NCBI GenBank assembly: GCA_029259355.1
Contig: JAPDIZ010000003.1
Location: forward strand, 69,181-133,180
Direction of reading: 5' to 3'
Source: Candidatus Bathyarchaeota archaeon
GTDB taxonomy: Archaea; Thermoproteota; Bathyarchaeia; JAPDIZ01
Length of the DNA: 64,000 nt
A program made the position numbers and the translations under genes. The notes beneath the pieces are model-generated. The model worked only from the letters and a program-made list of their open reading frames with translations. It searched no databases and had not been told where the DNA came from. Shown here piece by piece: positions 6,111 through 63,962 of this stretch; the first letter of the stretch is position 1; each line of letters opens with the position of its first letter.

Positions 6111-6133
6111 GTGATGTGGATAGGAACAAGGTG

Positions 6134-48562: not shown

Positions 48563-49288
48563 TTAGGTCATGGGAGCGTATATACCTAGGTAGAGCCTAC
48601 CGAGGTCTGGGTGGGAGAGCAGCTCCTTAGCTGAGCCGCTGAATATTGGGCGGCCAGCTACGAAGAGGTATGCGCTGTCACCTATTTCGAGAGCACGCTT
48701 AGCGTTCTGCTCCACCAAGACTATGGTCATGTCGTGAGTATCCCTCAGCTGGACAATCTGCCCCAAGATCGTTCTCGCTATCTTAGGCGCTAGGTTTGCC
48801 GTAGGCTCATCGAACATCATGAGCTTGGGGTGCCGAATGAGCGCCATAGCTATCGCCAGCATCTGGCGCTCTCCTCCGCTCAGCTTCATCGCCTTGCTAC
48901 CCATGTACTCCTTTAGAATGGGGAAGAGCTCCAGCACCTCGGCCATCCTAGACTCCACTTCATCCCTAGGAACTGTGTAGCTCGCCATCAGCAGATTTTC
49001 CCTAACCGTTAGGTGCGGGAAAACGTTTTCCACCTGCGATAGATAGGCTATGCCCACCCTAGCTACTTCGTGAGGCTTGAGGTTTGTCAAGTCGATTCCG
49101 TCAAAAGTTATCTTTCCGCTGTAGAGGCTAGTCAGCCTGAAGATGGTCTTAAGCATCGTAGACTTGCCGCTTCCGTTTGGACCCACGATTACGGTGATCT
49201 CTCCGTCTCTCACCTCCATATCTACGTCGAACAGCACCTGAAGGCTTCCGTAGCCTGCGTTGACTCCCTCAGCTACCAAATGGGGCAA
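48563..49288 (-). CDS. livF: ABC transporter ATP-binding protein, LivF-type
   Basis: Walker A GPNGSGKST; signature LSGGERQ; Walker B MMFDEP. Confidence 0.8.
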   Translation of the reverse strand: MPHLVAEGVNAGYGSLQVLFDVDMEVRDGEITVIVGPNGSGKSTMLKTIFRLTSLYSGKITFDGIDLTNLKPHEVARVGIAYLSQVENVFPHLTVRENLLMASYTVPRDEVESRMAEVLELFPILKEYMGSKAMKLSGGERQMLAIAMALIRHPKLMMFDEPTANLAPKIARTILGQIVQLRDTHDMTIVLVEQNAKRALEIGDSAYLFVAGRPIFSGSAKELLSHPDLGRLYLGIYAPMT

Positions 49289-49291
49289 GCT

Positions 49292-50086
49292 TCACCCACC
49301 CAGATACGATTCGATGACCTCGGGAGTGTTCACTACGTCCTTAGGCTTTCCCTCAGCGATCACCCTCCCTCTGTGCATAGCGTAGACGTGATCCACGTAT
49401 TGAAGCGCGATGTCGAGCCTATGCTCGACTATCAAGAACGATATACCCAACTCCTTCCTCAAACCAAGTATGTGCTCAAAGATCTCGTGAGCCAGCCTCG
49501 GGTTTATGCCAGCTATGGGCTCATCCATCAAGATAACTCGGGGGTCGCTCATCAGCGCTCTGCCGATCTCAACGAGCTTCATTTGCCCACCGCTCAAAGC
49601 GTTTACGGGCGTGTTCCACAGACCGTCTAGGTTGAGTATCTCGAGCACGTTAAACGCCTTCTCTACAAGCTCTTCCTCTTGCTCGACCCAAGTCTTCTTC
49701 AGCACAGCCTTAGACAGGTTTTCGCCTACTTGGCTTCTAGCTGCTACCAAGAGGTTCTCCAAGACCGTGAGCTTGGTGAAGAGAGCGGGTATCTGAAAGG
49801 TTCGAACTACACCGCTCTGGTATATCTTGTGGGGAGGCCAACCCGTTATGTCGGTTCCGTTAAACCTCACCCGCCCATCGTCTAGCCTGTAGATTCCAGA
49901 GACCACGTTGATCAGCGTAGTCTTTCCGCTGCCGTTGGGGCCGATGAGCATGACCAAAGATCTGTCTCCAACGCCCAGCGTAGCCCCATCTAGCGCAACC
50001 ACTCCGCCAAATCGCTTCCGAACGTTTTCTACGTCTAACACCCTTCCGTCTGATCCGCTCATACCCGTGGAGCCACCCTTTCCCAC
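49292..50086 (-). CDS. livG: ABC transporter ATP-binding protein, LivG-type
   Basis: Walker A GPNGSGKTT; signature LSGGQMK; Walker B ILMDEP. Confidence 0.8.
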   Translation of the reverse strand: MGKGGSTGMSGSDGRVLDVENVRKRFGGVVALDGATLGVGDRSLVMLIGPNGSGKTTLINVVSGIYRLDDGRVRFNGTDITGWPPHKIYQSGVVRTFQIPALFTKLTVLENLLVAARSQVGENLSKAVLKKTWVEQEEELVEKAFNVLEILNLDGLWNTPVNALSGGQMKLVEIGRALMSDPRVILMDEPIAGINPRLAHEIFEHILGLRKELGISFLIVEHRLDIALQYVDHVYAMHRGRVIAEGKPKDVVNTPEVIESYLGG

Positions 50087-50154
50087 TTTTGTGGGCTTAG
50101 TGAGGCATCAAAAAAGGAAGAGGTTATTTATTAAGTTTAGCGCTACCCATGCTC

Positions 50155-51597
50155 CTAGAACCACTGGACGGTTCCCGTAGCAGCGTTGTAGATACCTACG
50201 TCAACCCACTTGTACTGGCCATCGACGAGCTGGACGTTGGTTATGACATAGTCACCGTAGGCGCGGTCACCCGCGTCGTCGAGAGCGGTCCAGCCAGTAA
50301 CGCCGAAGTACCTGTCGGCGACCTCGGGTATGGCCTTGGCTACGGCTTGCCCGTCGTAGACCCTTGCCTCAAGTATAGCGAGAGCTGCTATCCACGCAGA
50401 GTCGTAGAGGTTCATTGAGTATGGGTGCGGATCGATGCCGAACCTGCTTCTGTACTTCTCGATGAACGCGTCCTTCTTTGGAGACTTTGCTGGTGTGTAG
50501 ATAGTTGAGCCTACGAAGACTGCGCTAACGACATCGCCTACGCTCTCAGCAATCCTCGTCGAGTAGGCAATGCCATCGGTTCCGAACCACTTGACATCCA
50601 TGAGCACGCTGTAGTCCTTAGCCAAGCTGAGTATGCCTGTTCCTTCTTCGAACGAGATTAGGACGACGCCTACGTCAGCGCCAGCGCCGAAGGCGTTGAC
50701 AGCATCAGCGAGCTTGCTTACCTCAGCAGAGTAAACCGCTGCATATGGGTCGTAAGGTATCTCGGTGGTGGTGCCGCCCATAGCCTCGAAGTTCTCCTTG
50801 ATGGCGTCCCTGAGACCAACTCCCCAGTCGTCGTTTCTGTAGATGATTACGAGCTTCCTTATGCCAGATTGCCATATGATGTGAGCAAGTGCTTTGCCTT
50901 GGGTTACGTCAGTAGGCACCGTTCGGAACAGTGGGTCGCCAGCGATGGCGAGACCTGGGAACGTCGAGGAGGGGCTTATGGTTACGAGGTTGTTTTCCTT
51001 CAAGTAGCTGAGCACCTTACTCGCTTCGCCGCTGGCGTATGGGCCTACATAGACCTTTATGCCCTTAGCAGCAAGCGACTTAACGGCCTCTAGGGCGCCA
51101 TCTGGCGAGGTCTTGGTGTCTTCGATGTATATCTTAAAAGCGACGTTTAGGCCGAGGGTGTTGTGGACGTAGTCGTTAATGTCCTCCTCCGCTAGTATGA
51201 GCGCGTTCTTCCCATTTTCGCCGTAAGAAGACAGAGCGCCTGAGAGGGGTATTAGAGCGCCGATGGGCACTTCGCTTGGAAGCTGGCCCGCAGCAGTCGC
51301 GCCTACGCCAGGCGCTGCTGCGAGGATGTAGCCGATGCCTGCGCCCACCAGTATGCCTATCACTAGTACAACGACCAAGTAGGTGATCGATGGCTTAGCC
51401 GACAATTTTTTCACCCACCTACCCGTACCTCTTGAATATGGCCTTTTGCCATGGAGACGAATACATAGCAAGGGGGTAGGTAGAAATATAACTCTTTTTG
51501 TGGAGAATACAGCAAAACGCGGCGGTGGAGCGGGCGAAAAGCGTGGTGAGCCCATGATCCACCTTGAGATACTGAAGGAGGCGGTGATGTTCAGCAA
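50155..51597 (-). CDS. ABC transporter substrate-binding protein (type I periplasmic binding fold, Liv-like)
   Basis: N-terminal membrane anchor/signal segment, then alpha/beta binding-protein fold; the ORF-track N-terminus is probably over-extended. Confidence 0.75.
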   Translation of the reverse strand: MLNITASFSISRWIMGSPRFSPAPPPRFAVFSTKRVIFLPTPLLCIRLHGKRPYSRGTGRWVKKLSAKPSITYLVVVLVIGILVGAGIGYILAAAPGVGATAAGQLPSEVPIGALIPLSGALSSYGENGKNALILAEEDINDYVHNTLGLNVAFKIYIEDTKTSPDGALEAVKSLAAKGIKVYVGPYASGEASKVLSYLKENNLVTISPSSTFPGLAIAGDPLFRTVPTDVTQGKALAHIIWQSGIRKLVIIYRNDDWGVGLRDAIKENFEAMGGTTTEIPYDPYAAVYSAEVSKLADAVNAFGAGADVGVVLISFEEGTGILSLAKDYSVLMDVKWFGTDGIAYSTRIAESVGDVVSAVFVGSTIYTPAKSPKKDAFIEKYRSRFGIDPHPYSMNLYDSAWIAALAILEARVYDGQAVAKAIPEVADRYFGVTGWTALDDAGDRAYGDYVITNVQLVDGQYKWVDVGIYNAATGTVQWF

Positions 51598-52540
51598 CCT
51601 CTTGGTGCTGATGTCGATAGGGCTTACGCTAACCTACATGACCCTCAAGGTCCCGAACTTCTCTCACGGAGACTTCGCCACCCTCGGCGCCTACGCAGCC
51701 TACACCCTCTACAAGCTCATGGGGGCTGGAATAGTTTCGACGGTGCCTGTAGCGTTTCTCTTCTCAGGCGCTGTAGCGCTCATGCTCTACTACGTGGTCT
51801 TTAGACCTCTCTGGAAGAGGGGAGCGGGTATAGTGGTGCTCATGATCGCCTCCATAGCTCTAGAGATCGCGATAAGGAGCTGTGTACACATCTACGCAGA
51901 CGTGATGACAGCAGCCACTCCCCCCGACGTGTTCTTCAGAGGCTTCATGATCACCGAGGAGTTTGTGCTCAACATCGGTGGGTTGGTGCTTCCCGGCTTA
52001 CTCACCCTATCCACGCTCATGGTGGTAGTGCTCGTCGTATCTCTCTACATCCTCCTCACCAAGACCAAGTTCGGCATAGCGATGAGAGCAGCAATAGAAA
52101 ACCCAAGCTTAGCTAGCACCGTGGGGATAAACGTAGACTTGGTCTATGCAGTATCTTGGTTCTTGGCGGGAGGGCTTGCTGGCGCAGCAGGAGCTCTTAT
52201 CCCCCTATACTTCCCGTGCGACCCAGAGAGTGGTTGGTGGTTCCTGCTCAGAATATTCACCGTAACCATATTGGGCGGTCTCTCAGGCCTTTGGGGTACT
52301 ATAGTGAGCGGCTACATAGTGGGCTTTTCAGAGGTCATAGGCATCTACCTGCTTTCGCAGCCTCCTCTCTCGCTTTCAACAGCTTATAGACCAGCTATAG
52401 CCCTCCTCATACTAGTTATTACGCTGTTGGTAGCTCCCAAGGGCTTGAGCGGCATCGAGTGGGATCAGGTCATGTACTCGCTCAAAAAGCGGTTTGGTGG
52501 TGTGGTAAGCGTTGGTGTTGGGGATAGTCGATCCAGTTAG
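51554..52540 (+). CDS. livH: ABC transporter permease, LivH-type
   Basis: Polytopic permease; start placed at internal ATG (MIHLEIL) to avoid overlap with the divergent substrate-binding gene. Confidence 0.7.
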   Translation: MIHLEILKEAVMFSNLLVLMSIGLTLTYMTLKVPNFSHGDFATLGAYAAYTLYKLMGAGIVSTVPVAFLFSGAVALMLYYVVFRPLWKRGAGIVVLMIASIALEIAIRSCVHIYADVMTAATPPDVFFRGFMITEEFVLNIGGLVLPGLLTLSTLMVVVLVVSLYILLTKTKFGIAMRAAIENPSLASTVGINVDLVYAVSWFLAGGLAGAAGALIPLYFPCDPESGWWFLLRIFTVTILGGLSGLWGTIVSGYIVGFSEVIGIYLLSQPPLSLSTAYRPAIALLILVITLLVAPKGLSGIEWDQVMYSLKKRFGGVVSVGVGDSRSS

Positions 52541-53600
52541 GTTTTTGCTAGACTTCACAGCGCTCTACGCAGTGTACATGATACTGTCAGTTAGCTTAAA
52601 CTTCGAGTATGGCTACTTGGGCATACCAAACTTCGGCAAGGTGCTCTTCTTCGCGGGAGGAGCCTTCATAGTTGGGGGTATGACAGCTAGGTTTGTTGCT
52701 TGGCTAGCAGGCATCGCCTACTCACCTGAGACATACTCTATTGAGAACGTCAAGCTATCTATGCAGGTTTCACAATACTTCGCTCAAAACCCCGGTGTAG
52801 CGATCTTGGTGCTGCTGTTAGCGGTTGTACTAGCTATAGGGTTCAGCGCTTTGCTGGGGCTGTTGGCTTCTTATCCCGCTATAAGGCTGAGGGAGGACTA
52901 CTTAGGCATAACGCTTCTCGCCATGGGCGAGTTGCTGAGGGTTATTGCGAGAAACTATGAGCCATGGGTTTGCGGAACATTTGGAGTGGCGGTGCCCGAT
53001 CCCTTGGCTTGGGTGCCCACCTCCCTCCACGACTTTGCCTACATCGCACTAATGCTATCCGCAGCCTTCGGCGTCTGGCTATTCACCGAGCAGCTAGCTC
53101 GCTCACCGTTTGGCAGAATGCTTAGAGCGATAAGAGACAACGAGGTAGCTGCGGCTGCGCTGGGCAAAGACGTAGTGAAGACTAGGATGAAGGTGCTGAT
53201 AGTGGGCTCGGCGATGGCTGGGCTTGCTGGAGCACTCCACGCATTCTACACCCACGCCGTCCACCCAGACGACTACATGCCCATAAGGACATTCTTGGTG
53301 TGGGTTATGGTGATTCTTGGAGGAGCTGGCAACAACGCTGGCGCTATGCTGGGCGCACTCATCTACACGCTCATCGATAGGCTCATCGCTCAGTACAAGT
53401 ACGCCATAGCAGCCCCCTTCGACGTAAACTACCTGAGCTACGTAATCTTGGGGATAGTGCTCATCCTCGTCCTTATGTACAAGCCCGAGGGAATCTTGCC
53501 AGAGAAGCCTAGCGAAACCATCGACTTTTCGCGAAAGAAGCAAGAGCTTGAACAGGCGAAGCAGTCTGGGAGAGAGCTAGAGGTGTTTTCTAGCGATTAG
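52512..53600 (+). CDS. livM: ABC transporter permease, LivM-type
   Basis: Polytopic membrane protein downstream of livH with overlapping junction. Confidence 0.75.
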   Translation: MVLGIVDPVRFLLDFTALYAVYMILSVSLNFEYGYLGIPNFGKVLFFAGGAFIVGGMTARFVAWLAGIAYSPETYSIENVKLSMQVSQYFAQNPGVAILVLLLAVVLAIGFSALLGLLASYPAIRLREDYLGITLLAMGELLRVIARNYEPWVCGTFGVAVPDPLAWVPTSLHDFAYIALMLSAAFGVWLFTEQLARSPFGRMLRAIRDNEVAAAALGKDVVKTRMKVLIVGSAMAGLAGALHAFYTHAVHPDDYMPIRTFLVWVMVILGGAGNNAGAMLGALIYTLIDRLIAQYKYAIAAPFDVNYLSYVILGIVLILVLMYKPEGILPEKPSETIDFSRKKQELEQAKQSGRELEVFSSD

Positions 53601-54452
53601 CACATACTCCCTACACCAGTATAGTGGAAACCTATTGAGTATTTTCGCTAGCAGAACTAGGGCTCTCAACAAGCTCCTCGAAAACCTCCTGTACAGTATC
53701 CAGTCAAAGTTAGCGGAGGTTTTTCGAAAGAGTAGCAGAGCCCACCTATCGCCTCCGAAGAGCTGGGCCAGCTCAGCTTCACCCATAGCTCTATCAGGTG
53801 GGGTGAGCGATCTATCAACCGAGTCCCGGTACTCGTCCTGAAGGCGCTTGATGGCTTCCCTCTTGCGCTCGAGGTGTTTTCTCGCAAGCTTAACCAACCA
53901 CCTCAGAGGCGGTGCCCCCCAAATGGGATCCATCCACTCTTCACGTGGAGCGATAACCACCACCAGCCCGTTGGGCTTAAGCACTCTCCAAACCTCGCTT
54001 ACAACAGTCTCAGCATCGTGGACGTGTTCGAGCATATGGCTGCAGAGCACCACATCCACCGAGTTGCTGCGGATAGGGAGCAGCTCCCCAGGCGAAAGCG
54101 CAAAACAAGCTTCTTTGCAGCGCTTGCTCGCTTGCCGCAGAAGAGCCTTGGAGATGTCCGATCCAAAAAAGCGTGGGGGTTTTTCGCACACAGCAGCTAT
54201 CTCGCTTAGGACAAGCCCCTCTCCGCACCCACAGTCTAAGCAGATTTGGCCATTTCTACCATCAAACACCTTCTTCCAAAGCCTTCGAAAGAAGCCTTGC
54301 CTAACCTCTCGCTCAGCAAGCCTAACGTCTCTAGGAACCTTGTAGTAGACGGTGAGCGCATGGTCGTCTAGCTCCTCATAAGCGCTGTATATGGCTGAGT
54401 ATATCTTGTCGTAAACCTCTACGTGCCTCTTAAGCCTCTTCCCCTGCTTCAA
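53577..54452 (-). CDS. class I SAM-dependent methyltransferase
   Basis: Motif I ICLDCGCGEGLVLS. Confidence 0.7.
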   Translation of the reverse strand: MKQGKRLKRHVEVYDKIYSAIYSAYEELDDHALTVYYKVPRDVRLAEREVRQGFFRRLWKKVFDGRNGQICLDCGCGEGLVLSEIAAVCEKPPRFFGSDISKALLRQASKRCKEACFALSPGELLPIRSNSVDVVLCSHMLEHVHDAETVVSEVWRVLKPNGLVVVIAPREEWMDPIWGAPPLRWLVKLARKHLERKREAIKRLQDEYRDSVDRSLTPPDRAMGEAELAQLFGGDRWALLLFRKTSANFDWILYRRFSRSLLRALVLLAKILNRFPLYWCREYVLIARKHL

Positions 54453-55914
54453 TACTGACCTCCTCTATCCAATACTCTACCACCCAGTAGCCGCTATCGA
54501 ACAACCTGATCTGTCCAGAGCTTGAAGCTGAGCGCTCCACCACCACGTATGCAGGAGGCTTCGTCACATAGCTTGGCGTAAGTGGGTATGCCCACCACCA
54601 ATGCCCCACCCCATATGCGGTGAGAACAGGTTCAGCCCCTCTCTCCACAACAAACGAGTATACCAAGCTCTCCTCCCAAGATATTCCGTAAAAACCCACC
54701 GACTTCTCAACCACTACTCGAGCCATAAGCGTTGCCCAAACCCCTTGGATTAAGATAAGCACCGCGACCAAAGCAAGCGCGAGCACCCAGACCCACCTAG
54801 AGGGGAGAGGAAGGCGCAGAGCCTCCGCTGCATCGCGTAGGAGCAAGGCGAGGGCAAAAATTCCTAGAGTGCTTAAGCAGAGAACGGGGTACGTTAGGTA
54901 CTGGATGAAACGGGCTATGGCATATTCGCCCACAACTCCTGAAGCGATGAGGAGGTGAGGAGCAACCACCCAAGCAGCAATCGCTTCCCTGGCCAAGGAC
55001 GAAGAGCTTTCTCGCTTCATCGCCAAGTAGACCACTCCAAGCATAGCGAGCGCAGTATAGGGGAGGAAGTAGCTTGCGAGGTAGAAGTTTTTCAGTGCCA
55101 AGACTCTCCAATCGCTCACCAAGCCTTTTTTAGGAAGCTGCTCAGCTATGCGAAGCCCACGAACAAGCGATTGAGCAGCTCTCGAAGTCATCGATCTGCT
55201 CTCTACAAACAAGTTAACGCTGTTTACCTCTTGATGCCAAGCATATGCGTAGGCGGTTGCACCTATCAACGCAACCAAAACCCACAGCCAGTCCAGCCGC
55301 TTCTTCGCCAACGCGTAGAGAGTGAGTAGCAAAAGCGTCGAGAAGGCCACAGCGGGGGTGGAGAGGTGCAGAGACCCAGCGAATGAGAGAATCAGGAAGA
55401 CAACTAGGGCTTCTCGAGCGCCAACTCGCTTGCTCGAAACAAATGCAAGGAGAAGGGCTACAAAGAAAAAACCTATGGCTGTTGGGTAGCCTCCCCACGA
55501 ATACACTAACAGATCGTTTATCGAAAGCGCGACGAAGGTGGAGGCGAGGAGAGCAAAGCTTCTTCCCAGCTTAGAGCACAGGCAATACACTGCAAGCACT
55601 GACAAAGAGTTTAGGGTGATGGAGATTAGAGTGAGCGCGGTCAGCGCTTGGAGAGCGTCTAGAGAAGAAGCTGTGGCTACGCAAGCAGCGACCACGTGGA
55701 TTGAAGATGCGTAGACTCTCCACGCATCTATCCAAAAGTACCCAAGCCGATCTACATTCTCTATGGCCAAAACCTGCGAGAGGTGTCTACCCGCATCACT
55801 TCCGCAGCCAGCGTATCCATCGAAGCCGTAGGCTTTCACCGAAAAGCTGAGCACAAGGATTAGGGCTAAAGTTAGCTTGCGCATACATAAGCGCGATCTA
55901 AGCTCTTCAGCCAA
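54430..55914 (-). CDS. polytopic membrane protein with C-terminal soluble domain (possible GT-C-like glycosyltransferase or polymerase)
   Basis: 494 aa, more than 10 hydrophobic helices; 23-nt overlap with the downstream methyltransferase. Confidence 0.4.
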   Translation of the reverse strand: MAEELRSRLCMRKLTLALILVLSFSVKAYGFDGYAGCGSDAGRHLSQVLAIENVDRLGYFWIDAWRVYASSIHVVAACVATASSLDALQALTALTLISITLNSLSVLAVYCLCSKLGRSFALLASTFVALSINDLLVYSWGGYPTAIGFFFVALLLAFVSSKRVGAREALVVFLILSFAGSLHLSTPAVAFSTLLLLTLYALAKKRLDWLWVLVALIGATAYAYAWHQEVNSVNLFVESRSMTSRAAQSLVRGLRIAEQLPKKGLVSDWRVLALKNFYLASYFLPYTALAMLGVVYLAMKRESSSSLAREAIAAWVVAPHLLIASGVVGEYAIARFIQYLTYPVLCLSTLGIFALALLLRDAAEALRLPLPSRWVWVLALALVAVLILIQGVWATLMARVVVEKSVGFYGISWEESLVYSFVVERGAEPVLTAYGVGHWWWAYPLTPSYVTKPPAYVVVERSASSSGQIRLFDSGYWVVEYWIEEVSIEAGEEA

Positions 55915-55972
55915 CCCCTCACCTTCGAAGCTCCTTATCCAAGTAGCTTTTTATAATAGCGCTTGTTAATCT

Positions 55973-56986
55973 GTGAGACCAGCATTGACTCAAGTGCTTT
56001 TGGCTTTACAACTCCTTGCATCGATGGCTTTATCGTTTGCAGCTACGTACATCCTCGTACCACTAGCCATAGAGAGGCTAACAGCTAGAGGTATCTTCGG
56101 CGTAGATGTCCACAAACCTACTCAGCCCCGAGTGCCAGAGATGGGTGGAGTAGCATTTGTTGGAGGATACCTGCTTGGAATGCTATACCTCCTCACCGCA
56201 TTCCCTGGCTACATAACCCCCATACTGGCTGCGCTTTGCAGCATACTGATGATCTGTTTGATGGGGATGCTTGACGACATACTCGACCTAAGCCAGAGGA
56301 CCAAAGCAACCCTTCCACTAATAGCATCCCTTCCGCTGATAATAGCTGTGAGCAGCGACCGCGCCATGCTCATCCCCCTCATCGGTCGAGTCCAGCTAGG
56401 CCTCATCTACCCCTTCCTCTTGGTTCCCATAGGCGTCACAGCTGCGTCCAACTTAACTAATCTATTAGCAGGGTTCAACGGCTTAGAAGCGGGTATGGGG
56501 ATAATCGCTCTCTCCTCTCTGGTGATATCTGCCCTGTTAATAGGACACGATTTATGCGCAGTGATAGCAGCGCCCATGATCGGCGCACTAGCCGCTTTCT
56601 TCCTCTTCAACCGATACCCAGCTAGGATCTTCCCGGGAAACGCGGGCACCTTCTCGATAGGTGCTGTGGTTGCTGCAGCCGTTATACTGGGCGATATGGA
56701 GGTTATAGGCGTAATATGCCTCATGCCCTACATCATAGAGTTCTTCATCAAAGCAAGAACCAAGTTCAAGGGGGTTTGCTTCGGCGTTCTAAACCCCGAC
56801 GGAACGCTTTCTCCGCCAAGAGGCAAGCACGTCGAGTCCTTAACCCACATCCTCATGCTCAACGGAAGATGCACTGAAAAGGGTTTGGTGTATAGGCTGC
56901 TGCTCATAGAAGCATTCTTTGGCACGATAGCCATAGTTGTAGCTCACTTAAGCCTCTACTTCATTCTACTCAGACCAGTCAGCTAG
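55973..56986 (+). CDS. MraY/WecA-family UDP-HexNAc:polyprenyl-phosphate HexNAc-1-phosphate transferase (AglH-like)
   Basis: MGMLDDILDLS (D-D motif), NLTNLLAGFNGLEAG, FPGNAG; paralog of 12521-13486. Confidence 0.8.
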   Translation: MRPALTQVLLALQLLASMALSFAATYILVPLAIERLTARGIFGVDVHKPTQPRVPEMGGVAFVGGYLLGMLYLLTAFPGYITPILAALCSILMICLMGMLDDILDLSQRTKATLPLIASLPLIIAVSSDRAMLIPLIGRVQLGLIYPFLLVPIGVTAASNLTNLLAGFNGLEAGMGIIALSSLVISALLIGHDLCAVIAAPMIGALAAFFLFNRYPARIFPGNAGTFSIGAVVAAAVILGDMEVIGVICLMPYIIEFFIKARTKFKGVCFGVLNPDGTLSPPRGKHVESLTHILMLNGRCTEKGLVYRLLLIEAFFGTIAIVVAHLSLYFILLRPVS

Positions 56987-56991
56987 TACCA

Positions 56992-57433
56992 GAAGTAGGG
57001 GTTGTTGCAAGCAATCCACGCAAGCTGGAGTATGCTGTAGACGAAGTAGGCAGCGATCAGCGCGTAACTAGCCATGCGCTCACGCAGCGAAGCAGTTTGG
57101 AGCGCACCACAGGCAATGACCATCGCCAGCAGTGGAGTAGCAGCCAGCATGTACCTCGCCTCCTTGTGTATGAATAAGGAGTGTGCAAAGAGCTAGTGCG
57201 AAAGCATTAGCTGAAATAAACCAAGTCTTTTGATCTCCACGTAACAGAGCTATTAGCACAAGGTACAGCGCTGGGCCAAAGATTGCGAAGAAACAGTAGT
57301 AGAAGAACTCTGGGGGAGAGGAGTACTGTATGAGCAAAACCTGCTCTGTGTTTAGGTTAAAGGTTAGGAAGCGCCAAGGTGACTTAAACGGAACTCCATA
57401 AACCACGTAATCTAAGAGAGCTTGAATTGCCAT
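56992..57433 (-). pseudogene. frameshifted small membrane protein gene (possibly GtrA-like)
   Basis: One frame gives MAIQALLDYVVYGVPF...LLIHTQGG (57080-57433); a different frame continues ...EARYMLAATPLLAMVIACGALQTAS...MASYALIAAYFVYSILQLAWIACNNPYFW to a stop near 56992. Both halves are hydrophobic and protein-like. Confidence 0.4.
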
Positions 57434-57982
57434 AGCTACCGAGAAGCCAGCGACATAGGGAAAAGCAGCTTTGGAGAAGCGGTGAAGCTGGGGTTTAAAG
57501 AGGCTAGAGGAGACATAATCGTCCCAGTGATGAGGGATAGATCCGATATCCCTAAGCTACTGAAAGCTGTTCTCTCAGGCTACGACATAGCCATAGGCTC
57601 GAGGTTCATCAAGGGATCCAAGCTCGTAGGCCACCCGAGGTGGAAGCTATCCGCCAACAGGCTATACAACGCTTTGCTAATGGTTGTTACGGGGAGGAGG
57701 ATATCCGACTTCACCAACGCCTTCAAAGCATACAAAGGGGAAGTGCTAGATGGGATTAACCCAAGCTCGAGAAGCTTCGACATAACAGCGGAAATCGCGC
57801 TGAAGGCTGTGTTCATGGGAGCAAGAATGGTCGAAGTTCCCGTAGAGTGGAGAGGAAGAAGCAAAGGAGAGGCTAAGTTTAAGCTAACCGTTGGAGCAAG
57901 CTACCTCGCTACGCTGCTCAGGGTTTGGGTAGAGGGAATTGTGGGTAGAGCCTTATCCAAAGCTCGACGAGTTGTGTGGTGA
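57422..57982 (+). pseudogene. 5'-truncated GT2 (Dpm1-like) glycosyltransferase remnant
   Basis: Aligns to residues about 75 onward of the GT2 at 16059-16808 (GEAVKLGFKEARGD vs GEGTARIEGFNRS); the N-terminal nucleotide-binding region is absent and the catalytic MDADLSHPP position reads MRDRSDIP. Confidence 0.5.
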
Positions 57983-58080
57983 ATAGCCCTCTGCAAAGCG
58001 GTAGTTAAGCTGAGTCGAGGAAAAGCTCTTTTGAATGATGCGGGTTTTACGCTTATGCAAGGGGGAAGGCGAAGCTGTCC

Positions 58081-59136
58081 AAAGTAGTCATAACTGGAGG
58101 ATTAGGCTTCATAGGCTTCAACTTCGCTACGCACTTCCTCAGAAGCTATCGAGAAGACGGTGTAGAGGTCGTGTTAGTCGACAACTTATCGGATCCGAGC
58201 GGGGGAGCTTACAAAAACATGGTAACGCTTCTCAGACACCATGGAGAGGATGTTGAGAAGGGTTTGCTGAGGATCGTTCCAACAGATGTGAGAGATTTTG
58301 AAGCTCTTCGCCAGACGTTGAGAGATGCAGACACCGTCCTACACTTCGCTGCTCAAGTAGCTATGAAGCCCTCGCTCGAAGACCCCATAACCGATTTTGA
58401 GATAAACGCGCGCGGAACGCTAAACGTCTTAGAAGCTGCGAGGAGATCGGAATCGAACCCCGTGATGCTCTACACCTCAACTAACAAGGTGTATGGACGG
58501 CTCGATAGAGTACCACTAGTGGAGAAGGAGCTTCGCTGGGACTACTCAGAGGATTCGCCATACTATGAGGGAATTACCGAGGATTACCCGCTCGACATAG
58601 GAGGGCCTTACGGCATAAGCAAGTGCGCAGGCGACATGTACTTTCGAGAATACGCCAAAACCTACGGCATGAAGACCATAGTCTTCCGTATGTCAGCCGT
58701 ATATGGTGAGAACCAGTACACAACCGAAGTACACGGCTGGGTTGGGTGGGTTATCTCGCGAGCGCTTTTGAAAAAGCCCCTAACCATATTCGGCGATGGA
58801 AAACAGGTTCGTGGAGTGTTGCACGTGCAAGACCTAATCGAAGCGTTTGAGCTTGCGCAAAAAAACATCAACCGAGTTAGGGGTGAGGCATTCAACATAG
58901 GGGGAAACCGCCGAAACTCTCTCTCCATCCTCGAGCTGCTCAAGCTGCTCAAGGAGAGATACGGCGTCGCTCCCTCTGAGGTTAGGTATGCGAATTGGAG
59001 AAAAGTGGATCAGAAGTGCTTCATAGCTAACTGCCGAAAAGCTTTGGAGTACTTTGGGTGGAGGCAGAAGATAAGTAAGGAAGAAGGCATCGACCGGATG
59101 ATCGCTTGGGTTCGGCAAAACATCGCCGATAGCTAG
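58081..59136 (+). CDS. NAD-dependent nucleotide-sugar epimerase/dehydratase (paralog of 30705-31847), no canonical start codon for the Rossmann motif
   Basis: Frame-1 translation from 58081 gives KVVITGGLGFIGFNFATHFL...; Y-x3-K (YGISKCAGD); first in-frame ATG/GTG/TTG is GTG at 58171, after the Rossmann motif. Confidence 0.7.
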   Translation, partial: KVVITGGLGFIGFNFATHFLRSYREDGVEVVLVDNLSDPSGGAYKNMVTLLRHHGEDVEKGLLRIVPTDVRDFEALRQTLRDADTVLHFAAQVAMKPSLEDPITDFEINARGTLNVLEAARRSESNPVMLYTSTNKVYGRLDRVPLVEKELRWDYSEDSPYYEGITEDYPLDIGGPYGISKCAGDMYFREYAKTYGMKTIVFRMSAVYGENQYTTEVHGWVGWVISRALLKKPLTIFGDGKQVRGVLHVQDLIEAFELAQKNINRVRGEAFNIGGNRRNSLSILELLKLLKERYGVAPSEVRYANWRKVDQKCFIANCRKALEYFGWRQKISKEEGIDRMIAWVRQNIADS

Positions 59137-60587
59137 CGAACCAGCTTCTCATATTTTCTCAGCCACTTGATAATTCGAGGTTCTAGAGGAAGCTTGAGGA
59201 AGCGCGTCTTCCACCGAATACTCTCGATTTTGCCCAAAGCCTCTAAAAGAACTCCGAGAGATTTCTTCGAAACCTTGTGCTTTAAGCTGGGGTGGTGTAC
59301 TAGCCACGTGATGAAGCACAGCTCCTCCAACATTTCTCCATACTCTTTGGTGAGCCAAGGGGAAACCGCAACGTCGTATGAGAAGAACGCCCACTCCTCC
59401 AAGCTCCTTGGCTCCCTTAAACCGTGTTTGAGCGAGAACTCATAGAGAGGAGTCCCTGGGTATGGTGTGTAGATGAAGAGGGAGAGGTGAGATTCTGGGT
59501 TGATTTCGCGAAGCTTCTCCATAACCCTGATCGTCATGTAGACATCACCGTAGGTTTCGCCGGGAAAACCAACCATGAAAGAGTATTCGGGAACGATGCC
59601 GAATTTCTTGCACTTCTCCGCAGACCTCAGGATATCGCTTACCGTTATGTCCTTCTTGATGAGCTCAAGTATTCTAGGGGATCCAGATTCTGCGCCTAGA
59701 AGCAGAGAGCGGCAGCCGCTTCTGCTAATCCAGCCCATAAGCTCATCGCTAAAACCCGCTACATAGTCGCATCTGCAGCTCGCGCTCCAACCAATGTCCA
59801 AACCCTCCTCAACAATGCCTCTGCATATCTCAACAACTCTTCTTCTGTCCACGAAGAAGTTGTCGTCTTGGAAGCGAACACCCTTGATGCGGTAGCGCCA
59901 AACGAGGCTCTTCAGCTCCTCAACAACTCTCCTCGACGATAGGGGAAACCACTTTCTGCCATAGAAACGAGATATCGCGCAAAACGCGCAGCGATGCACA
60001 CACCCACGGCTCGTTATGTAGTCTAAGGTTTTGTCAGAAGCTTCATCTTTAACGCAGTATTTCTCAACGTTGATTAAGTGGTAGGCAAGCGGGGGAAACT
60101 TATTCACATCCTCCAGCAGCCTCTCGGGATTATGCTGAACTTCTCTACCATACTTGTAAGATAAGCCTAGCAACCCCTTTAGCTCGTCTCCCTTCTCTAG
60201 CCGCTGCACAAGCTCTAGTAGCGTAAGCTCTCCTTGCCCTCTCACCACAGCATCTACCAAGGGGTGGCTAACTGTCTGCTCAGGAAGAAGCGTTGGGTGG
60301 AAGCCTCCCCAGACGACAAAGGCTCCCTGCTCCTTCGCGGCAGCCGAAGCAGCCAAGCCGTCTCTGATTTGAAAGCCCGTCATCGAGCTTACTCCAATGC
60401 AGAGAGCGGAGCGCGATAGCTTCCTGATGGTATGCTCAAAGTCATCATCCAGCCTAGCGTCTACTATTTCCACCTCATAACCTGCTTTCTCGAGAACAGG
60501 TGCTAGCGCTAACAGCGAAAGGGGGGCTCTGTTGACCGGAACCCCAGTTCGGGGATAGAAGAGAACTACCCTCCCGCTCAAGCCCAA
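59133..60587 (-). CDS. B12-binding-domain radical SAM enzyme (class B radical SAM)
   Basis: N-terminal cobalamin-binding-like domain (VVLFYPRTG...EVEIVDARLDD); radical SAM CxxxCxxC (CVHRCAFCAIS); 484 aa. Confidence 0.8.
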   Translation of the reverse strand: MGLSGRVVLFYPRTGVPVNRAPLSLLALAPVLEKAGYEVEIVDARLDDDFEHTIRKLSRSALCIGVSSMTGFQIRDGLAASAAAKEQGAFVVWGGFHPTLLPEQTVSHPLVDAVVRGQGELTLLELVQRLEKGDELKGLLGLSYKYGREVQHNPERLLEDVNKFPPLAYHLINVEKYCVKDEASDKTLDYITSRGCVHRCAFCAISRFYGRKWFPLSSRRVVEELKSLVWRYRIKGVRFQDDNFFVDRRRVVEICRGIVEEGLDIGWSASCRCDYVAGFSDELMGWISRSGCRSLLLGAESGSPRILELIKKDITVSDILRSAEKCKKFGIVPEYSFMVGFPGETYGDVYMTIRVMEKLREINPESHLSLFIYTPYPGTPLYEFSLKHGLREPRSLEEWAFFSYDVAVSPWLTKEYGEMLEELCFITWLVHHPSLKHKVSKKSLGVLLEALGKIESIRWKTRFLKLPLEPRIIKWLRKYEKLVR

Positions 60588-60632
60588 AAAACCCGCGTGA
60601 AAAATTGCGAAGCTTTAGATATCACTACCAAG

Positions 60633-60851
60633 CTAAAGATAGCCAAGCGCTCTCAGCCTTCGCTTTATCTCTTCTTCCTCCTCCGGGCTATAGGGATACT
60701 CTTCACCCTCTTCTTCTTTGAGGAGTTCGGTGAGCACGAACTCGATAAACTCTTCTACGTCTTTGAAAGCTCCCTCACTTTCCTTGACTTTCTCCTCAAT
60801 TTTTTGGTAAAGCGATTTGGGGATGGATATAGTTACCTTCTCTGCGCTCAT
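60633..60851 (-). CDS. small ribbon-helix-helix-like protein with acidic C-terminal tail
   Basis: KVTISIPKSLYQKIEEKV (RHH-like strand/helix) followed by a Glu-rich tail; start overlaps the cysC stop by 4 nt. Confidence 0.5.
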   Translation of the reverse strand: MSAEKVTISIPKSLYQKIEEKVKESEGAFKDVEEFIEFVLTELLKEEEGEEYPYSPEEEEEIKRRLRALGYL

Positions 60852-61402
60852 CCTCGCACCATCCTTGGAGGCTCTTCTATGTACCCAAGGTTTTTCAAAG
60901 TTTCCAAAATCTTCTCCACACAGCTGTCTGGGCTTTCAGCTTCCGTATCCAGTACGACCTCGGGGTTCTCTGGCTCCTCGTACACGTCCTGTATACCAGT
61001 CATATCGCTTATCTCACCCCTTAAGGCTCTTCTGTACAAGCCCTTGGGGTCTCTGCGGATGCAAGTTTCTAGAGAGCACTTAACGTATACCTCGACAAAG
61101 TCTTTGATGAGTTCTCTGGCAAACCTCCTCACCGAGCGGTAGGGCGAGACAAACGATGCGATAACCACAACTCCGTTGCGAGCTAATAGGTGGCTGACGT
61201 ATGCTACTCTGCGGAGGTGCCTCTCCCGATCCTCTCTGCTAAAGCCCGCCTCAGGGCTAAGCCACTTCCTCACCTCATCCCCATCCAAAACCTCTACGGG
61301 GAAGCCATAGGTTCTCAGCACGGGCTCAAGCTTCCTAGCTATGGTAGTCTTTCCAGAGCTAGGAAGCCCGGTCAGCCAGATGACGAAGCCACGGCGCATC
61401 AC
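60848..61402 (-). CDS. cysC: adenylylsulfate (APS) kinase
   Basis: P-loop GLPSSGKTT; ASFVSPY; DPKGLYRRALRGEI...TGIQDVYEEP; 184 aa. Confidence 0.9.
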   Translation of the reverse strand: MMRRGFVIWLTGLPSSGKTTIARKLEPVLRTYGFPVEVLDGDEVRKWLSPEAGFSREDRERHLRRVAYVSHLLARNGVVVIASFVSPYRSVRRFARELIKDFVEVYVKCSLETCIRRDPKGLYRRALRGEISDMTGIQDVYEEPENPEVVLDTEAESPDSCVEKILETLKNLGYIEEPPRMVRG

Positions 61403-62790
61403 ACAGCCTCCACTAGGGACCGCCCCCTCAACCCAATAGGTTTCTCCAAACCAAAGAGCTCGAAAAGGGTGGGGGCTATGTCGTAGATAGATGCGCTCCT
61501 CCTCCCTTGACTTATCCTTCCCTCGGGGTCGTGCAGTATGTATACTCCGTGCATTGAGTGTACTGCATCATCTGGGCCTATGTCGTTTTCCGGAAGATAC
61601 ATGGTTCCATGGCCAAGCGTGCCCGCTGACCTCCAGTAGAGGTCGTCGAAGTAGACGAGGAGATCTGGGTAATCCCCCGATACGGTGGAGTAGAGCTGCT
61701 CAGGCTTGTAGACCTTAGTTTCCATTCTCCTACCGCTTGGATCGTCTATTTTTCGAAGCTCATCAGCTAGCTCCTCCCTAAAAGATTCGTAGCTGCTGGG
61801 GTCTATAACACCCCTAGGCTCTCTTCCCCTGACGTTGATGAAGATTCTTGCGTAGTATCCTCCCCACCCCCATGCCTTGGTGCGATCCCAGTCTACGGAT
61901 AGCTTTTCTAGGTCTACGACGCCCCCTGGCTTATGCTTGATGACCAAGTATCCCTTTTCGATGAGCCATTCGTTGACGCAGAAAGCACCCCTCATCCCCT
62001 TCGCTCCATGGTCTGAAACAACCAAGATGAGCACATCTTTTCCAACCACCTTCAAGAGCTCAGCGATTTTCTGGTCAACATACTTGTAGTAGTCTTCGAT
62101 AACGTGCTCAAACTCGTTTCCCGGAGTGTAGAGGTGGTGCGTAGGGTCGAAGAACTTCCAAAACGCGTGGTGGACACGATCAACACCGATCTCAACGAAC
62201 ATGAAGAAATCCCACTTTTTGCGCGAAGCCAAGTGGTTTATCGCCTTAAAGTGCAGATCCGTCATGTGATACAGCTCTCGAAGAAGCCGTTTCCGCTGCT
62301 CAGTCCTAAACTCCACATCAAAGACATACTTCTCGCCAATTACCCTCTCGATCTCAAATCTAAGCAGTGAGGGGTAGGTGTACTGCTTATCAGCTGAGGG
62401 AGTTATGAAGCAAGACACCCAGCACCCCTTGACAGGCTTTGGTGGATATCCTGGAGGCACGCTTACTATGCAAGAGCGCATTCCTCTCTTCGAAAGCTCG
62501 TCCCAAACAGCGGGGTACTTGACGCTATGGGAGTTCACGATGTATGTCTCGTCATAGGAACCCAGCTTCCTATGCCTAAAGCCATACATCCCAAGCTCTC
62601 CAGGCTCTCTCCCAGTAGCCATAACGATCCACGCGGGAATCGTTATTGGAGGATGACAACTCTCCAAAGAGCCGTAGAAGCCCCCATCCATCAAGGAGGA
62701 TATGGTTGGCAGAGAATCTCTAAACCTCTCGAAAACCAGCTCTGGAGGAGCACAGTCTAAGCCAATCACCAAAACTCTATTGCTCCTCAT
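61399..62790 (-). CDS. alkaline-phosphatase-superfamily enzyme (type I phosphodiesterase / nucleotide pyrophosphatase-like), function unknown
   Basis: N-terminal VLVIGLDCAPPEL and mid-protein LILVVSDHGA resemble metal-ligand motifs of the PF01663-like alkaline phosphatase fold (from memory); 4-nt overlap with cysC. Confidence 0.55.
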   Translation of the reverse strand: MRSNRVLVIGLDCAPPELVFERFRDSLPTISSLMDGGFYGSLESCHPPITIPAWIVMATGREPGELGMYGFRHRKLGSYDETYIVNSHSVKYPAVWDELSKRGMRSCIVSVPPGYPPKPVKGCWVSCFITPSADKQYTYPSLLRFEIERVIGEKYVFDVEFRTEQRKRLLRELYHMTDLHFKAINHLASRKKWDFFMFVEIGVDRVHHAFWKFFDPTHHLYTPGNEFEHVIEDYYKYVDQKIAELLKVVGKDVLILVVSDHGAKGMRGAFCVNEWLIEKGYLVIKHKPGGVVDLEKLSVDWDRTKAWGWGGYYARIFINVRGREPRGVIDPSSYESFREELADELRKIDDPSGRRMETKVYKPEQLYSTVSGDYPDLLVYFDDLYWRSAGTLGHGTMYLPENDIGPDDAVHSMHGVYILHDPEGRISQGRRSASIYDIAPTLFELFGLEKPIGLRGRSLVEAV

Positions 62791-62795
62791 CTAAT

Positions 62796-63962
62796 TCACT
62801 CCACAAAGGGCTTTTCGTAAGATAGCAGAACCTCAGCAACCTCTGGCCTAACCATGTAGGGCGGGGGTCGCTCCCTCCTGCTTATCAATTCCCTAAGCTT
62901 GGTGCCGCTAAACCTTACCCTAAGCTCCTCGCTATGCGGGCATATCTTCTCATTAACTATCCCGCCGCACTTTTCGCAGTAGAGGAACTCTCTGAAGAAG
63001 AGGGGGACTATGCCTAGGTCTGGGAACTGCTTGAAAATCTCCTGAGCCTCATATGGCCCGTAGTAGTTACCTACGCCTGCGTGGTCTCTACCCACGATGA
63101 AGTGCGTACACCCAAAGTTCTTCCTCATTATGGCGTGGTGAACAGCCTCTCTCGGCCCAGCGTAGCGCATTTGATACCGCAATATGCTCAAAACGACGGT
63201 GTCTTTCGGGAAGTAGTTCTTGGTGAGGACATCGTAAGCTCTCAAAATGACTTCGTCGCGAAAATCCCCTCTCTTCTTCCTACCTATCACTGGGTTTATG
63301 AATAGGCCATCTACGAAGGCTAGCGCCGACTTCTGGAGGTACTCGTGGCCGAGGTGGGGGGCGTTTCTCGTCTGAAAGCCCACGACCGTCCTCCAACCCC
63401 TCTCCCTAAACAAAACTCTCGTCTCAATAGGTCGGAGAGTGTAGCGGTAGAAGGGGTTTGGCGCTTCTCCAATGAGCTCTATTTCCCCTCCAATCAGCAG
63501 CTCCTTCGCTGAATAAAGCTTAGCCACACCAGGGTGGTTTGCATCCCGTGTCTTGAACACCTTCTCCGCGTACTCACCCCTATCCCAAGGATAAACCTCC
63601 TCAACGCGGAGAACTGCAAGAGGTGTTTCGCTAAAGAAGAGAGCAGCTTCATCACCCTCCCTAAGCTCGCCCAAATCCTCCTTAGAGACATCGAGGACTA
63701 TAGGGATAGTCCAAGGAAGACCATTCAGCAACCTCATCTCATAGAGAACGCTCTCAAGCTCATCTCGGCACAAAAAGCCCGTCAACGGGCTGTATATCCC
63801 ATGACCAATGTTCTCGAGGTCTAGGGCGTGATCCTCATCTACGTATATCCTATGCATTTCCCTAGACTCGATTAGTAGGCGCTGAAGCCTAGCTCCCTTG
63901 GCGACGCGAACCACCAACGAGCCGCCGTGAGGCTTCGACACCAAGCTCTCCGCAGCCTCCAC
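62796..63962 (-). CDS. sat: sulfate adenylyltransferase (ATP sulfurylase)
   Basis: QTRNAPHLGHEYL and VGRDHAGVG motifs; N-terminal PUA-like domain; 388 aa. Confidence 0.9.
   Translation of the reverse strand: MEAAESLVSKPHGGSLVVRVAKGARLQRLLIESREMHRIYVDEDHALDLENIGHGIYSPLTGFLCRDELESVLYEMRLLNGLPWTIPIVLDVSKEDLGELREGDEAALFFSETPLAVLRVEEVYPWDRGEYAEKVFKTRDANHPGVAKLYSAKELLIGGEIELIGEAPNPFYRYTLRPIETRVLFRERGWRTVVGFQTRNAPHLGHEYLQKSALAFVDGLFINPVIGRKKRGDFRDEVILRAYDVLTKNYFPKDTVVLSILRYQMRYAGPREAVHHAIMRKNFGCTHFIVGRDHAGVGNYYGPYEAQEIFKQFPDLGIVPLFFREFLYCEKCGGIVNEKICPHSEELRVRFSGTKLRELISRRERPPPYMVRPEVAEVLLSYEKPFVE

Follow-up and report, generated by a model that had tools for sequence, protein, structure and literature searches.

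How did three damaged or atypical genes come to lie side by side in an archaeal glycosylation cluster: through the joining of two modules, or through the loss of genes that already stood there? The locus is part of a 64,000-nt stretch of a Candidatus Bathyarchaeota genome (contig JAPDIZ010000003.1; hereafter the window, numbered from its first nucleotide). The original prediction for this region listed, within ~1.1 kb, a split membrane protein gene, a glycosyltransferase remnant and an epimerase gene without a canonical start. All three are present in the sequence, with coordinates and some details corrected below. Our analysis indicates that a two-gene module for glycan decoration is very probably present here as a recent loss-of-function allele, produced by one repeat-mediated deletion of 1,224 bp. 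It is an ordinary, well-resolved pseudogene pair, that is, a case of young gene loss and not a module seam.

Alignment to related strains had been proposed as a way to find an intact ancestral arrangement, and such an arrangement was indeed found. Three contigs (L020, L021 and L022) that are ~99% identical to the window (98.7–99.3% on both sides of the scar) carry at the same spot a whole 469-aa GT-C glycosyltransferase and a whole 246-aa dolichyl-phosphate-sugar-synthase-like GT2. The two genes are divergent and share an 84-nt spacer with a TATA box; TATAAATA lies in this spacer, ~30 nt upstream of the GT2 ATG. In a distant relative, L003/L004, both glycosyltransferases are also whole and stand in the same order, within the collinear series MT – 494-aa membrane protein – GPT – GT-C – GT2 – 72-aa gene – APS kinase – Phosphodiest – ATP sulfurylase. 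The L020–L022 contigs have this gene order as well, with an epimerase and a radical SAM gene in addition. Judged from these gene orders, the intact two-gene state is the ancestral one, because the more distant L003/L004 also has both genes whole in the same order.

The GPT and PAPS flanks of the damage are collinear in close and distant relatives alike. On the left stands GPT (55973–56986, plus strand; Pfam Glycos_transf_4, E 2e-33), an intact GT4-family phosphosugar transferase (AglH/WecA-like) that is convergent with the GT-C remnant, collinear with L003 and L020–L022 and separated from L020 by only three synonymous differences and one non-synonymous difference. Against GTDB species representatives the GPT protein gave only distant matches, of at most 43% identity, to Heimdallarchaeota and Bathyarchaeota MAGs. 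The right flank starts with the 72-aa gene (60633–60851, minus strand; identical protein on seven contigs), which is followed by APS kinase, Phosphodiest and ATP sulfurylase. This flank is collinear in all relatives, and the block 60634–63944 is collinear in L003. No tRNA genes or Rfam families were found in the window.

Relative to the intact arrangement the window lacks 1,224 bp, and the missing segment is bounded by GGGAAAAGCAGCTTT on the left and GGGAGAAGCAGCTTT on the right. These are the two copies of a 15-nt repeat that match at 14 of 15 positions, 10 nt of them exact (AAGCAGCTTT); in the intact allele one copy lies in the GT-C gene and the other in the GT2 gene, 1,224 bp apart start to start. 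Alignment with L020–L022 places the junction at 57458–57472: a single copy survives here, in the left variant GGGAAAAGCAGCTTT, and the left alignment block stops at 57472. The repeat is thus found at both breakpoints of the intact allele and one copy is left in the deleted allele, as in a repeat-mediated deletion. What has been lost is GT-C codons 1–307, the TATA-box spacer and GT2 codons 1–68. The event resembles the prokaryotic repeat-mediated (microhomology) deletions that make pseudogenes, both in its 10–15-nt repeat breakpoints with one copy kept and in a second, 12-nt deletion between 8-nt repeats inside the GT2 remnant. Nothing about it is unusual in comparison with these cases. A 10-nt repeat within ~1.2 kb is about what is expected by chance.

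On the minus strand, the surviving fragment comprises the C-terminal 162 codons (308–469) of the 469-aa GT-C glycosyltransferase and spans 56983–57472. It had been described as a small membrane protein split across two frames at 56992–57433; the split is real, while the identity and the limits had to be revised. The proximal piece (codons 308–402; 57188–57472, minus strand) matches the L003 orthologue with a tblastn E value of 2e-49. The distal piece (codons 403–469 and the stop; 56983–57186, minus strand), which lies in a different frame from the proximal, upstream piece, is 100% identical at the amino acid level to L020 residues 403–469 and matches the L003 orthologue with a tblastn E value of 2e-30. 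The frameshift between them is due to a one-base insertion, an A at 57187 that turns plus-strand CAAG into CAAAG; it is present in the window, L001 and L002 (the last showing no indel in this stretch) and missing from L020, L021 and L022. The intact orthologues (469–470 aa) match GT22 (PF03901) and PMT_2 (PF13231), and the window fragment retains only a weak Pfam GT22 match (E 0.006, profile positions 220–304). At the sequence level, the intact GT-C matched no solved structure. GT-C enzymes have an acidic motif, taken as catalytic, in the first extracytoplasmic loop, close to the N-terminus. The intact proteins of L020 and L003 have GDEDEY as this motif, which is gone from the window because it falls within the deleted codons 1–307.

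On the plus strand, codons 69–246 of the GT2 survive at 57458–57982 (E 4e-67 to the full-length 248-aa P0002) without a start codon of their own, a promoter or the N-terminal nucleotide-binding part. The absence of the N-terminus had been recognised correctly, but the start had been set at 57422; homology begins at 57458, at codon 69 of 246, and the TTG at 57422 is merely the first start codon of a mechanical ORF, within antisense GT-C sequence. The missing residues 1–68 include the IDDNS acidic motif, which the intact conspecific protein contains as VVIDDNSSD. What remains gives a weak Pfam GT2 match (E 0.003, profile positions 66–164). The intact L020 protein, by comparison, aligns over residues 4–235 with the Pyrococcus furiosus Dol-P-Man synthase (PDB 5MLZ, E 5e-36), its second-best structural matches being ArnC (E ~1e-21 to 1e-19). 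Against the NCBIfam models for AglJ, ArnC and the haloarchaeal Dol-P-hexose transferase it scores 88–95 bits, below the cut-offs of 325–529 bits. On sequence grounds, then, the GT2 belongs to the polyprenyl-phosphate GT2 class, within which a specific function is not assignable.

Further lesions lie within the GT2 remnant. Where 5MLZ has D-A-D, the intact GT2 family has M-G-D, in which the second Asp alone is kept, and the window has M-R-D (G94R), followed by a four-residue deletion. The proposed change to R-D-R was off by one residue in register. G94R (57533, G to A) and the 12-nt in-frame deletion after 57540 (lesions at 57533–57541, plus strand) are found in the window only, in comparison with L001, L002 and L020–L022, and both are missing even from the 99%-identical L001. 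The 12-nt deletion falls between 8-nt repeats ATCCGATA and removes four residues of the SDNPSD loop beside the catalytic Asp. Three other replacements, Y131H, F137S and R166G, are derived states of the deletion haplotype and affect positions that are conserved in six intact homologues. Against the intact L020 allele, pN/pS of the remnants is low (GT2 0.15, GT-C 0.05), so that relaxed constraint cannot be demonstrated statistically and is supported by a few replacements polarised with outgroups. A recent origin of the deletion accounts for the low ratio. Most of the differences between remnant and intact allele are older than the deletion. Comparison with L003 is uninformative for dating the decay, as synonymous divergence climbs steeply along the cluster: dS is 0.34 at the ABC permease and saturated at GPT and the genes after it.

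The original reading of the damage was that of a recombination or insertion seam at which a second glycosylation module (GPT, epimerase, B12-binding radical SAM and PAPS genes) had been joined to the first. It could draw on the steep rise in dS towards GPT, on the epimerase–radical SAM pair (57983–60632), in place of which L003/L004 has a 133-nt spacer, and on the patchy pS to conspecifics along the region (0 to 0.12), from which it follows that recombination shapes the locus. We nevertheless regard a seam as highly improbable. GPT and the PAPS genes flank the intact GT-C and GT2 in the same order both in L003/L004 and in L020–L022, the epimerase and radical SAM genes are already present in the undeleted conspecific allele, and the breakpoints are a direct repeat inside the two glycosyltransferase genes themselves, so that the scar is an internal deletion between collinear flanks. 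Nor is the expected foreign composition seen, as GC content and tetranucleotide usage of 56–64 kb are unremarkable and lie in the range shown elsewhere in the window.

Could the deletion, the frameshift and the missing epimerase start instead be errors of the source contig? The frameshift does sit in a short A run, and one of the assemblies that shares it, L001, has 2.6x coverage and private, error-like G-to-T and C-to-A changes that split its radical SAM gene. Yet all three lesions, namely the deletion, the extra A and the GTA codon, are common to the window, L001 (ENA) and L002 (Logan, another run), and they are linked to dozens of haplotype SNPs: all 37 linked substitutions between 57632 and 60602 recur in L001, L002 shares them across its shorter span, to 58111, and L024 and L025 carry the same linked SNPs 3' of the junction. 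Since the deletion occurs in two independent assemblies, it is not an assembly error, and a 15-nt repeat is too short for assembly collapse; an artefact is thus scarcely credible, and at the level of sequence these assemblies demonstrate a real haplotype. That the remnants are retained as functional products, such as a small membrane protein or a shortened GT2 acting as a regulatory subunit, appears exceedingly unlikely to us. The GT2 frame is open for 186 codons from the TTG and is called as a 170-aa protein in L001, and the low pN/pS might be read as constraint; however, the youth of the deletion accounts for the latter, the GT2 has lost its first 68 residues (IDDNS included) together with the promoter-bearing spacer, invariant positions have undergone radical changes, the window copy has lost part of the loop beside the catalytic Asp, and the GT-C tail is frameshifted. 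Gene decay was accordingly the right diagnosis for both glycosyltransferase remnants; for the epimerase, the missing start is real but decay is not established.

This epimerase gene (58075–59136, plus strand) encodes a CDP-tyvelose-2-epimerase-like SDR with an intact body (PDB 9RL0, E 3e-80; 1ORR, E 3e-71). The CDP-tyvelose (CDP-paratose) 2-epimerases 9RL0 and 1ORR are matched over their full length, and GxxGxxG, S/T and YxxxK are kept: the GxxGxxG region at T19–G26, T148 and Y191/K195, with all catalytic and NAD motifs present (alignment A1). There is no frameshift or stop, and the five amino acid differences from L020 are all conservative. Unlike 9RL0 and 1ORR, the window gene lacks a canonical start and is paired with a B12-binding radical SAM gene. 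The partner (59133–60587, minus strand; Pfam Radical_SAM and B12-binding) is intact, 100% identical to P0130, and differs from L020 by three synonymous changes and one non-synonymous change. Decay of the radical SAM gene, as the L001 assembly might suggest, was considered and dropped, since the two stop-causing changes are private to L001 and the gene is whole in L024, which has the same haplotype. The two-gene block lies 100 bp past the GT2 stop and ~0.6 kb from the deletion junction, and its presence in the undeleted allele means that it is unrelated to the damage.

As predicted, the Rossmann motif of the epimerase is not preceded by a canonical start. The reading frame begins at 58039, after the TGA at 58036–38, and contains no ATG, GTG or TTG between this TGA and the GTG at 58171, which lies 3' of the GGLGFIG motif (58096–58116). 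In the intact alleles of L020–L022 the sole canonical start is the GTG at 58084–86, which in the window is GTA (58086, A vs G). The Met position of the family is occupied by a CTG (58075), in the intact alleles too. We considered whether the epimerase had been silenced through loss of the GT2 promoter, and dropped this idea because the gene shows no radical changes, frameshifts or stops, unlike the GT2 remnant.

It is plausible, although we hold this tentatively, that the epimerase is alive and initiates at the near-cognate CTG 58075, in which case GTG to GTA would be a silent change of a Val codon. The CTG aligns with the Met of homologues and is also there in the intact alleles, and the purine-rich GGGGGAAGG lies 5 nt upstream of it as opposed to 14 nt upstream of GTG/GTA; the absence of frameshifts and stops and the conservative nature of the replacements argue in the same direction. 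In the homologues of L010/L011 and L014/L015, the start position is an ACG preceded by AAGGAGG or GAGGGA. Of the differences within the 77 codons before their first canonical start, 25 are synonymous and 9 non-synonymous (pN/pS 0.11); the N-terminus of these homologues is thus evidently translated and under purifying selection. Against a near-cognate start, the GTG that was lost was the only canonical start, and its loss is limited to the haplotype in which GT2 and GT-C were destroyed as well. Furthermore, GGGGGAAGG poorly matches the GGAGG/GAGGT motifs preceding other genes of the window, and a Shine-Dalgarno survey did not discriminate between CTG and GTG. Finally, a metagenome scan covered 80 members of the family; among the 65 more distant ones, ~62 have a canonical start no more than 25 codons upstream of the glycine motif, and the other three have one further upstream. 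As far as these sequences indicate, near-cognate starts are occasional and not general in the family, and canonical starts are the rule.

The likely history of the two-gene deletion runs as follows. The ancestral allele held the divergent DPMS-like GT2 (246 aa) and GT22/PMT_2-type GT-C (469 aa) on either side of the 84-nt TATA-box spacer. A single 1,224-bp deletion between the 10-nt exact (15-nt near-exact) direct repeats, one copy per gene, arose, probably by replication slippage or microhomology-mediated end joining, and left two promoterless, head-to-head 3' remnants. The haplotype probably then acquired the extra A in the GT-C tail and the radical GT2 replacements, and GTG to GTA in the neighbouring epimerase arose on the same haplotype; the data leave the order of the three shared lesions free. 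G94R and the second repeat-mediated deletion, of 12 nt, were added in the window alone.

As to the role of the lost pair, the experimental precedent is the AglD/AglS system of Haloferax volcanii (with the AglR flippase), in which a Dol-P-mannose synthase and a Dol-P-mannose mannosyltransferase attach the last sugar of the N-linked pentasaccharide (PMC3871713). The intact allele resembles it in that a cytoplasmic polyprenyl-phosphate GT2 and a multi-spanning GT-C stand together in an archaeal glycosylation cluster. This pairing implies the same two-step logic, whereby a sugar is loaded onto lipid and then transferred outside the membrane. By analogy with AglD and AglS, the GT2 would load a hexose onto dolichyl phosphate in the cytoplasm, and the GT-C would transfer the sugar to a glycan or protein outside; use of a dolichyl-phosphate-linked donor by the GT-C is suggested by its family and by its adjacency to the DPMS-like GT2. 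Loss of both may leave a surface glycan short of one residue. Orthology to AglD/AglS is not established, however, the AglJ and Dol-P-hexose transferase NCBIfam scores being far under the cut-offs, and the genes here are adjacent and divergent, whereas H. volcanii has aglD away from its agl cluster; the window copy of the pair is, moreover, destroyed. The P. furiosus synthase, the best solved-structure match, is covered over its catalytic domain and interface helices, but it has 374 aa, in comparison with 246 aa and no C-terminal transmembrane domain in the intact GT2 and with codons 69–246 only in the window copy. That the GT2 family has M-G-D for the D-A-D of this synthase, and that the GT-C resembles no solved structure in sequence, weigh against the assignment. 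In bacteria, three-component glycosylation systems join a flippase to a GT2 of the GtrB or ArnC type and to a GT-C, for instance GtrC or ArnT (PMC11127046). The same enzyme classes serve there as an add-on decoration module, but the present case is archaeal and dolichol-based, and the loss occurred by deletion and not by phase variation. No flippase gene was identified next to the GT2/GT-C pair.

For annotation, both remnants should be treated as pseudogenes of one deletion event, and neither as small ORFs nor as a horizontal-transfer seam. At this locus the loss of a decoration module from an archaeal surface-glycosylation island can be followed cleanly, base by base: through a chance 10-nt repeat, the shared promoter region of a donor-synthase/transferase pair was lost and both genes were disabled at once. 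With intact and deleted alleles at ~99% identity, a natural pair is available for testing the contribution of the module to the glycan. Both alleles occur in ENA assemblies with adjacent accession numbers, ERZ255153xx to ERZ255157xx, which may belong to one study, and in assemblies from several sequencing runs. Two wider readings are, taken jointly, doubtful. The deletion could be a selected surface-glycan variant, with both alleles coexisting in one natural population and the loss favoured, for example, by escape from a glycan-receptor virus; and ACG, possibly also CTG or ATA, could be stably used as initiation codons in the epimerase family, in which case the 'missing start' would reflect regulation and not decay. 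For work on non-canonical initiation in uncultured archaea the epimerase is a modest lead; its homologues keep an ACG start under purifying selection. The same glycosylation island of the genome retains at least two other DPMS-like GT2 paralogues.

Between the stop codon of the gene for a GT4-family phosphosugar transferase (GPT; 55973-56986; Pfam E 2e-33) and a CDP-tyvelose-2-epimerase-like gene, the window carries two head-to-head gene fragments. On the minus strand lie the final 162 codons of a GT22/PMT_2-type glycosyltransferase (GT-C; 56983-57472), split over two frames and matching only positions 220-304 of the Pfam GT22 profile. On the plus strand lie codons 69-246 of a dolichyl-phosphate-sugar-synthase-like GT2 (57458-57982), covering Pfam profile positions 66-164. 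All three damaged or atypical genes of the original prediction, namely a frame-split membrane protein, a GT2 remnant and an epimerase without a canonical start, are present in the sequence. The split GT-C fragment is real but reaches further right than had been proposed; the GT2 remnant is real too, but its homology starts at 57458 rather than at the TTG that opens the mechanical ORF. The supposed change of D-A-D to R-D-R was read one residue out of register: D-A-D of Dol-P-Man synthase (DPMS) aligns to M-G-D in the intact GT2 family, and the window reads M-R-D, with four residues deleted as well.

Used as a protein query, the GT2 remnant returned a truncated homologue (P0001, 96% identical) and a full-length 248-aa protein (P0002, 66% identical). 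The latter belongs to a more distant relative represented by contigs L003 and L004, which are 100% identical over 15.9 kb. On either side of the scar L003 and the window are collinear, the L003 order being methyltransferase, 503-aa membrane protein, GPT, 470-aa GT22/PMT_2 protein (minus), 248-aa GT2 (plus), 72-aa gene, APS kinase, Phosphodiest and ATP sulfurylase. An exact-match query with the 72-aa protein of the window located three conspecific contigs (L020, L021 and L022; 98.7-99.3% identity to the window on both flanks) with the order 72-aa gene, B12-binding radical SAM enzyme (rSAM; 482-484 aa), epimerase (350 aa), GT2 (246 aa), 84-nt spacer, GT-C (469 aa) and GPT.

Alignment to these three contigs shows that exactly 1,224 bp are missing from the window. 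The left breakpoint of the intact allele, GGGAAAAGCAGCTTT, lies inside GT-C on the opposite strand (codons 308-312), and the right breakpoint, GGGAGAAGCAGCTTT, inside GT2 (codons 69-73). A single repeat copy is left in the window (57458-57472), and since it is the left variant, the crossover falls inside the 10-nt exact stretch AAGCAGCTTT. The lost DNA comprises GT-C codons 1-307, including the GDEDEY loop motif, the 84-nt spacer, which carries TATAAATA ~30 nt upstream of the GT2 ATG, GT2 codons 1-68 and one repeat copy. A 10-nt repeat across ~1.2 kb is roughly the chance expectation, and the junction anatomy points to accidental slippage or microhomology-mediated deletion as the likely mechanism. 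The scar is a real, cleanly explicable but ordinary event: in this allele a repeat-mediated deletion inactivated the divergently transcribed GT-C and GT2 genes, and minor decay came after.

An assembly artefact is ruled out, as the lesions and linked substitutions recur in the ENA assembly L001 and in L002, a Logan assembly made from a different run. Both carry the junction, an additional A at 57187 and A instead of G at 58086; L001 has 37/37 linked haplotype-specific substitutions from 57632 to 60602, L002 has the linked substitutions across its shorter span (to 58111), and contigs L024 and L025 show identical SNPs downstream of the junction. The L001 rSAM gene is broken into 134-aa and 341-aa pieces (L001 3258 and 3457; window 59359 and 59558) by two private changes, G-to-T and C-to-A, on a contig of 2.6x coverage; in L024, of the same haplotype, the gene is intact, and the split probably reflects sequencing errors, not decay.

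The site had also been read as a recombination or insertion scar joining a second module. Both glycosyltransferases are whole in the conspecific contigs, an outcome that the original prediction had counted against itself; it refutes only the idea of a module seam, not decay. All relatives keep GPT and the PAPS genes in collinear order, and the composition of the supposed module is unremarkable (GC 0.50-0.54; tetranucleotide correlation 0.93 versus 0.90-0.97 elsewhere). The sole indel relative to L003/L004 is the epimerase-rSAM pair, which is already in the undeleted conspecific allele and is unrelated to the scar. The region does undergo recombination, though not at the deletion junction: dS to L003 rises along the cluster (48697-63944) from 0.34 in an ABC permease (52512-53600) and 0.48 in the methyltransferase to 1.2 in a 494-aa membrane protein, with saturation from GPT onward, and pS to L020 spans 0 (APS kinase, 72-aa gene) to 0.12 (GT2). 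Such mosaic divergence suggests recombination or faster turnover in the glycosylation genes. Neither Pfam nor NCBIfam gives a match for the 494-aa protein (54430-55914, minus), whose gene lies between those for the methyltransferase and GPT; its pN/pS against the conspecific allele is the neighbourhood maximum (0.39; 8 non-synonymous, 7 synonymous).

Later lesions have accumulated in both remnants. Common to the window, L001 and L002 are a +1 A, turning CAAG into CAAAG, which puts the GT-C tail out of frame, and the GT2 replacements Y131H, F137S, R165K and R166G. In six aligned intact GT2 homologues Y131 is invariant, 137 is always hydrophobic and 166 is never Gly, so the changes at these three positions arose on the deletion haplotype. 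Confined to the window are G94R, adjoining the catalytic Asp, and a 12-nt deletion between 8-nt repeats ATCCGATA that takes four residues out of the conserved SDNPSD loop. Differences from L020 are mostly synonymous (15 synonymous to 7 non-synonymous in the GT2 remnant, 7 to 1 in GT-C) and therefore mostly older than the inactivation; judged from these sequences, the decay overall is young.

The epimerase and the convergent rSAM gene form a 2.65-kb block (57983-60632) found in both alleles of the species; L003/L004 lack it and have a 133-nt spacer there (L003 10748-10881). The epimerase frame opens at 58039 and its GGLGFIG motif lies at 58096-58116, with ATG, GTG and TTG absent before 58171. 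Homologues begin M-x-K/R-I/V-L-I-T-G-G, and the family Met position is CTG (58075) in the window and in intact alleles. The only canonical start of the intact alleles, GTG at 58084, is GTA in the deletion haplotype, a change that is silent if the true start lies upstream. The body is intact (9RL0 match, E 3e-80; all motifs present), and all five amino-acid replacements that separate it from L020 are conservative. Upstream of their Rossmann motif, homologues in other uncultured lineages also lack a canonical start: the Met position is ACG in L010 (9770-10807), L011, L014 (2081-3118) and L015, behind AAGGAGG or GAGGGA, and AAG-ATA in L016 (~5830-6870) and L017, behind AAGGAGG, these Shine-Dalgarno-like sequences standing 6-8 nt before it. 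A comparison of L010 with L014 upstream of the first canonical start (77 codons) gives 25 synonymous and 9 non-synonymous differences, a pN/pS of 0.11, which indicates that this stretch is translated; in both contigs the upstream YdjM gene ends in an in-frame TAA, 7 codons ahead of the ACG. Canonical starts are the rule among 80 metagenomic family members that are more distant. It is possible, if not quite probable, that the window epimerase is still translated from a near-cognate codon; otherwise its start was lost very recently.

The best structure match of the intact GT2 is the P. furiosus DPMS 5MLZ (E 5e-36; catalytic domain and interface helices), followed by ArnC; AglJ, ArnC and Dol-P-hexose transferase models are also matched, below their cut-offs. 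GT-C was assigned to the GT22/PMT_2 group, and no sequence-level match to solved structures was found for it. The intact pair resembles, in combining a lipid-phosphate sugar synthase with a GT-C, AglD/AglS of Haloferax (PMC3871713) and bacterial three-component systems (PMC11127046), and by this analogy the deletion would likely deprive a glycan of one sugar that is added externally. Two paralogous DPMS-like GT2 genes remain in the window (16059-16808, minus, 34% identity to the intact GT2; 42740-43414, minus, 31%). Near them are large membrane proteins without a Pfam match (17887-20127, 746 aa; 43422-45086, 554 aa), each of which might be the GT-C partner of its neighbouring paralogue.

The site belongs to a 50-kb glycosylation island. 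Such genes fill most of the window: 10092-47990 encodes two NDP-sugar pyrophosphorylases, PGM/PMM, DUF354, at least five GT1/GT4-type transferases, a GT2 and a UDP-glucose dehydrogenase; no tRNA or Rfam RNA was found anywhere in the 64 kb. Behind the 72-aa acidic protein, a conserved block (60848-63962, minus) encodes ATP sulfurylase, a 463-aa Phosphodiest-family (alkaline-phosphatase superfamily) protein with no NCBIfam assignment, and APS kinase; the block suggests PAPS supply for a sulfated glycan.
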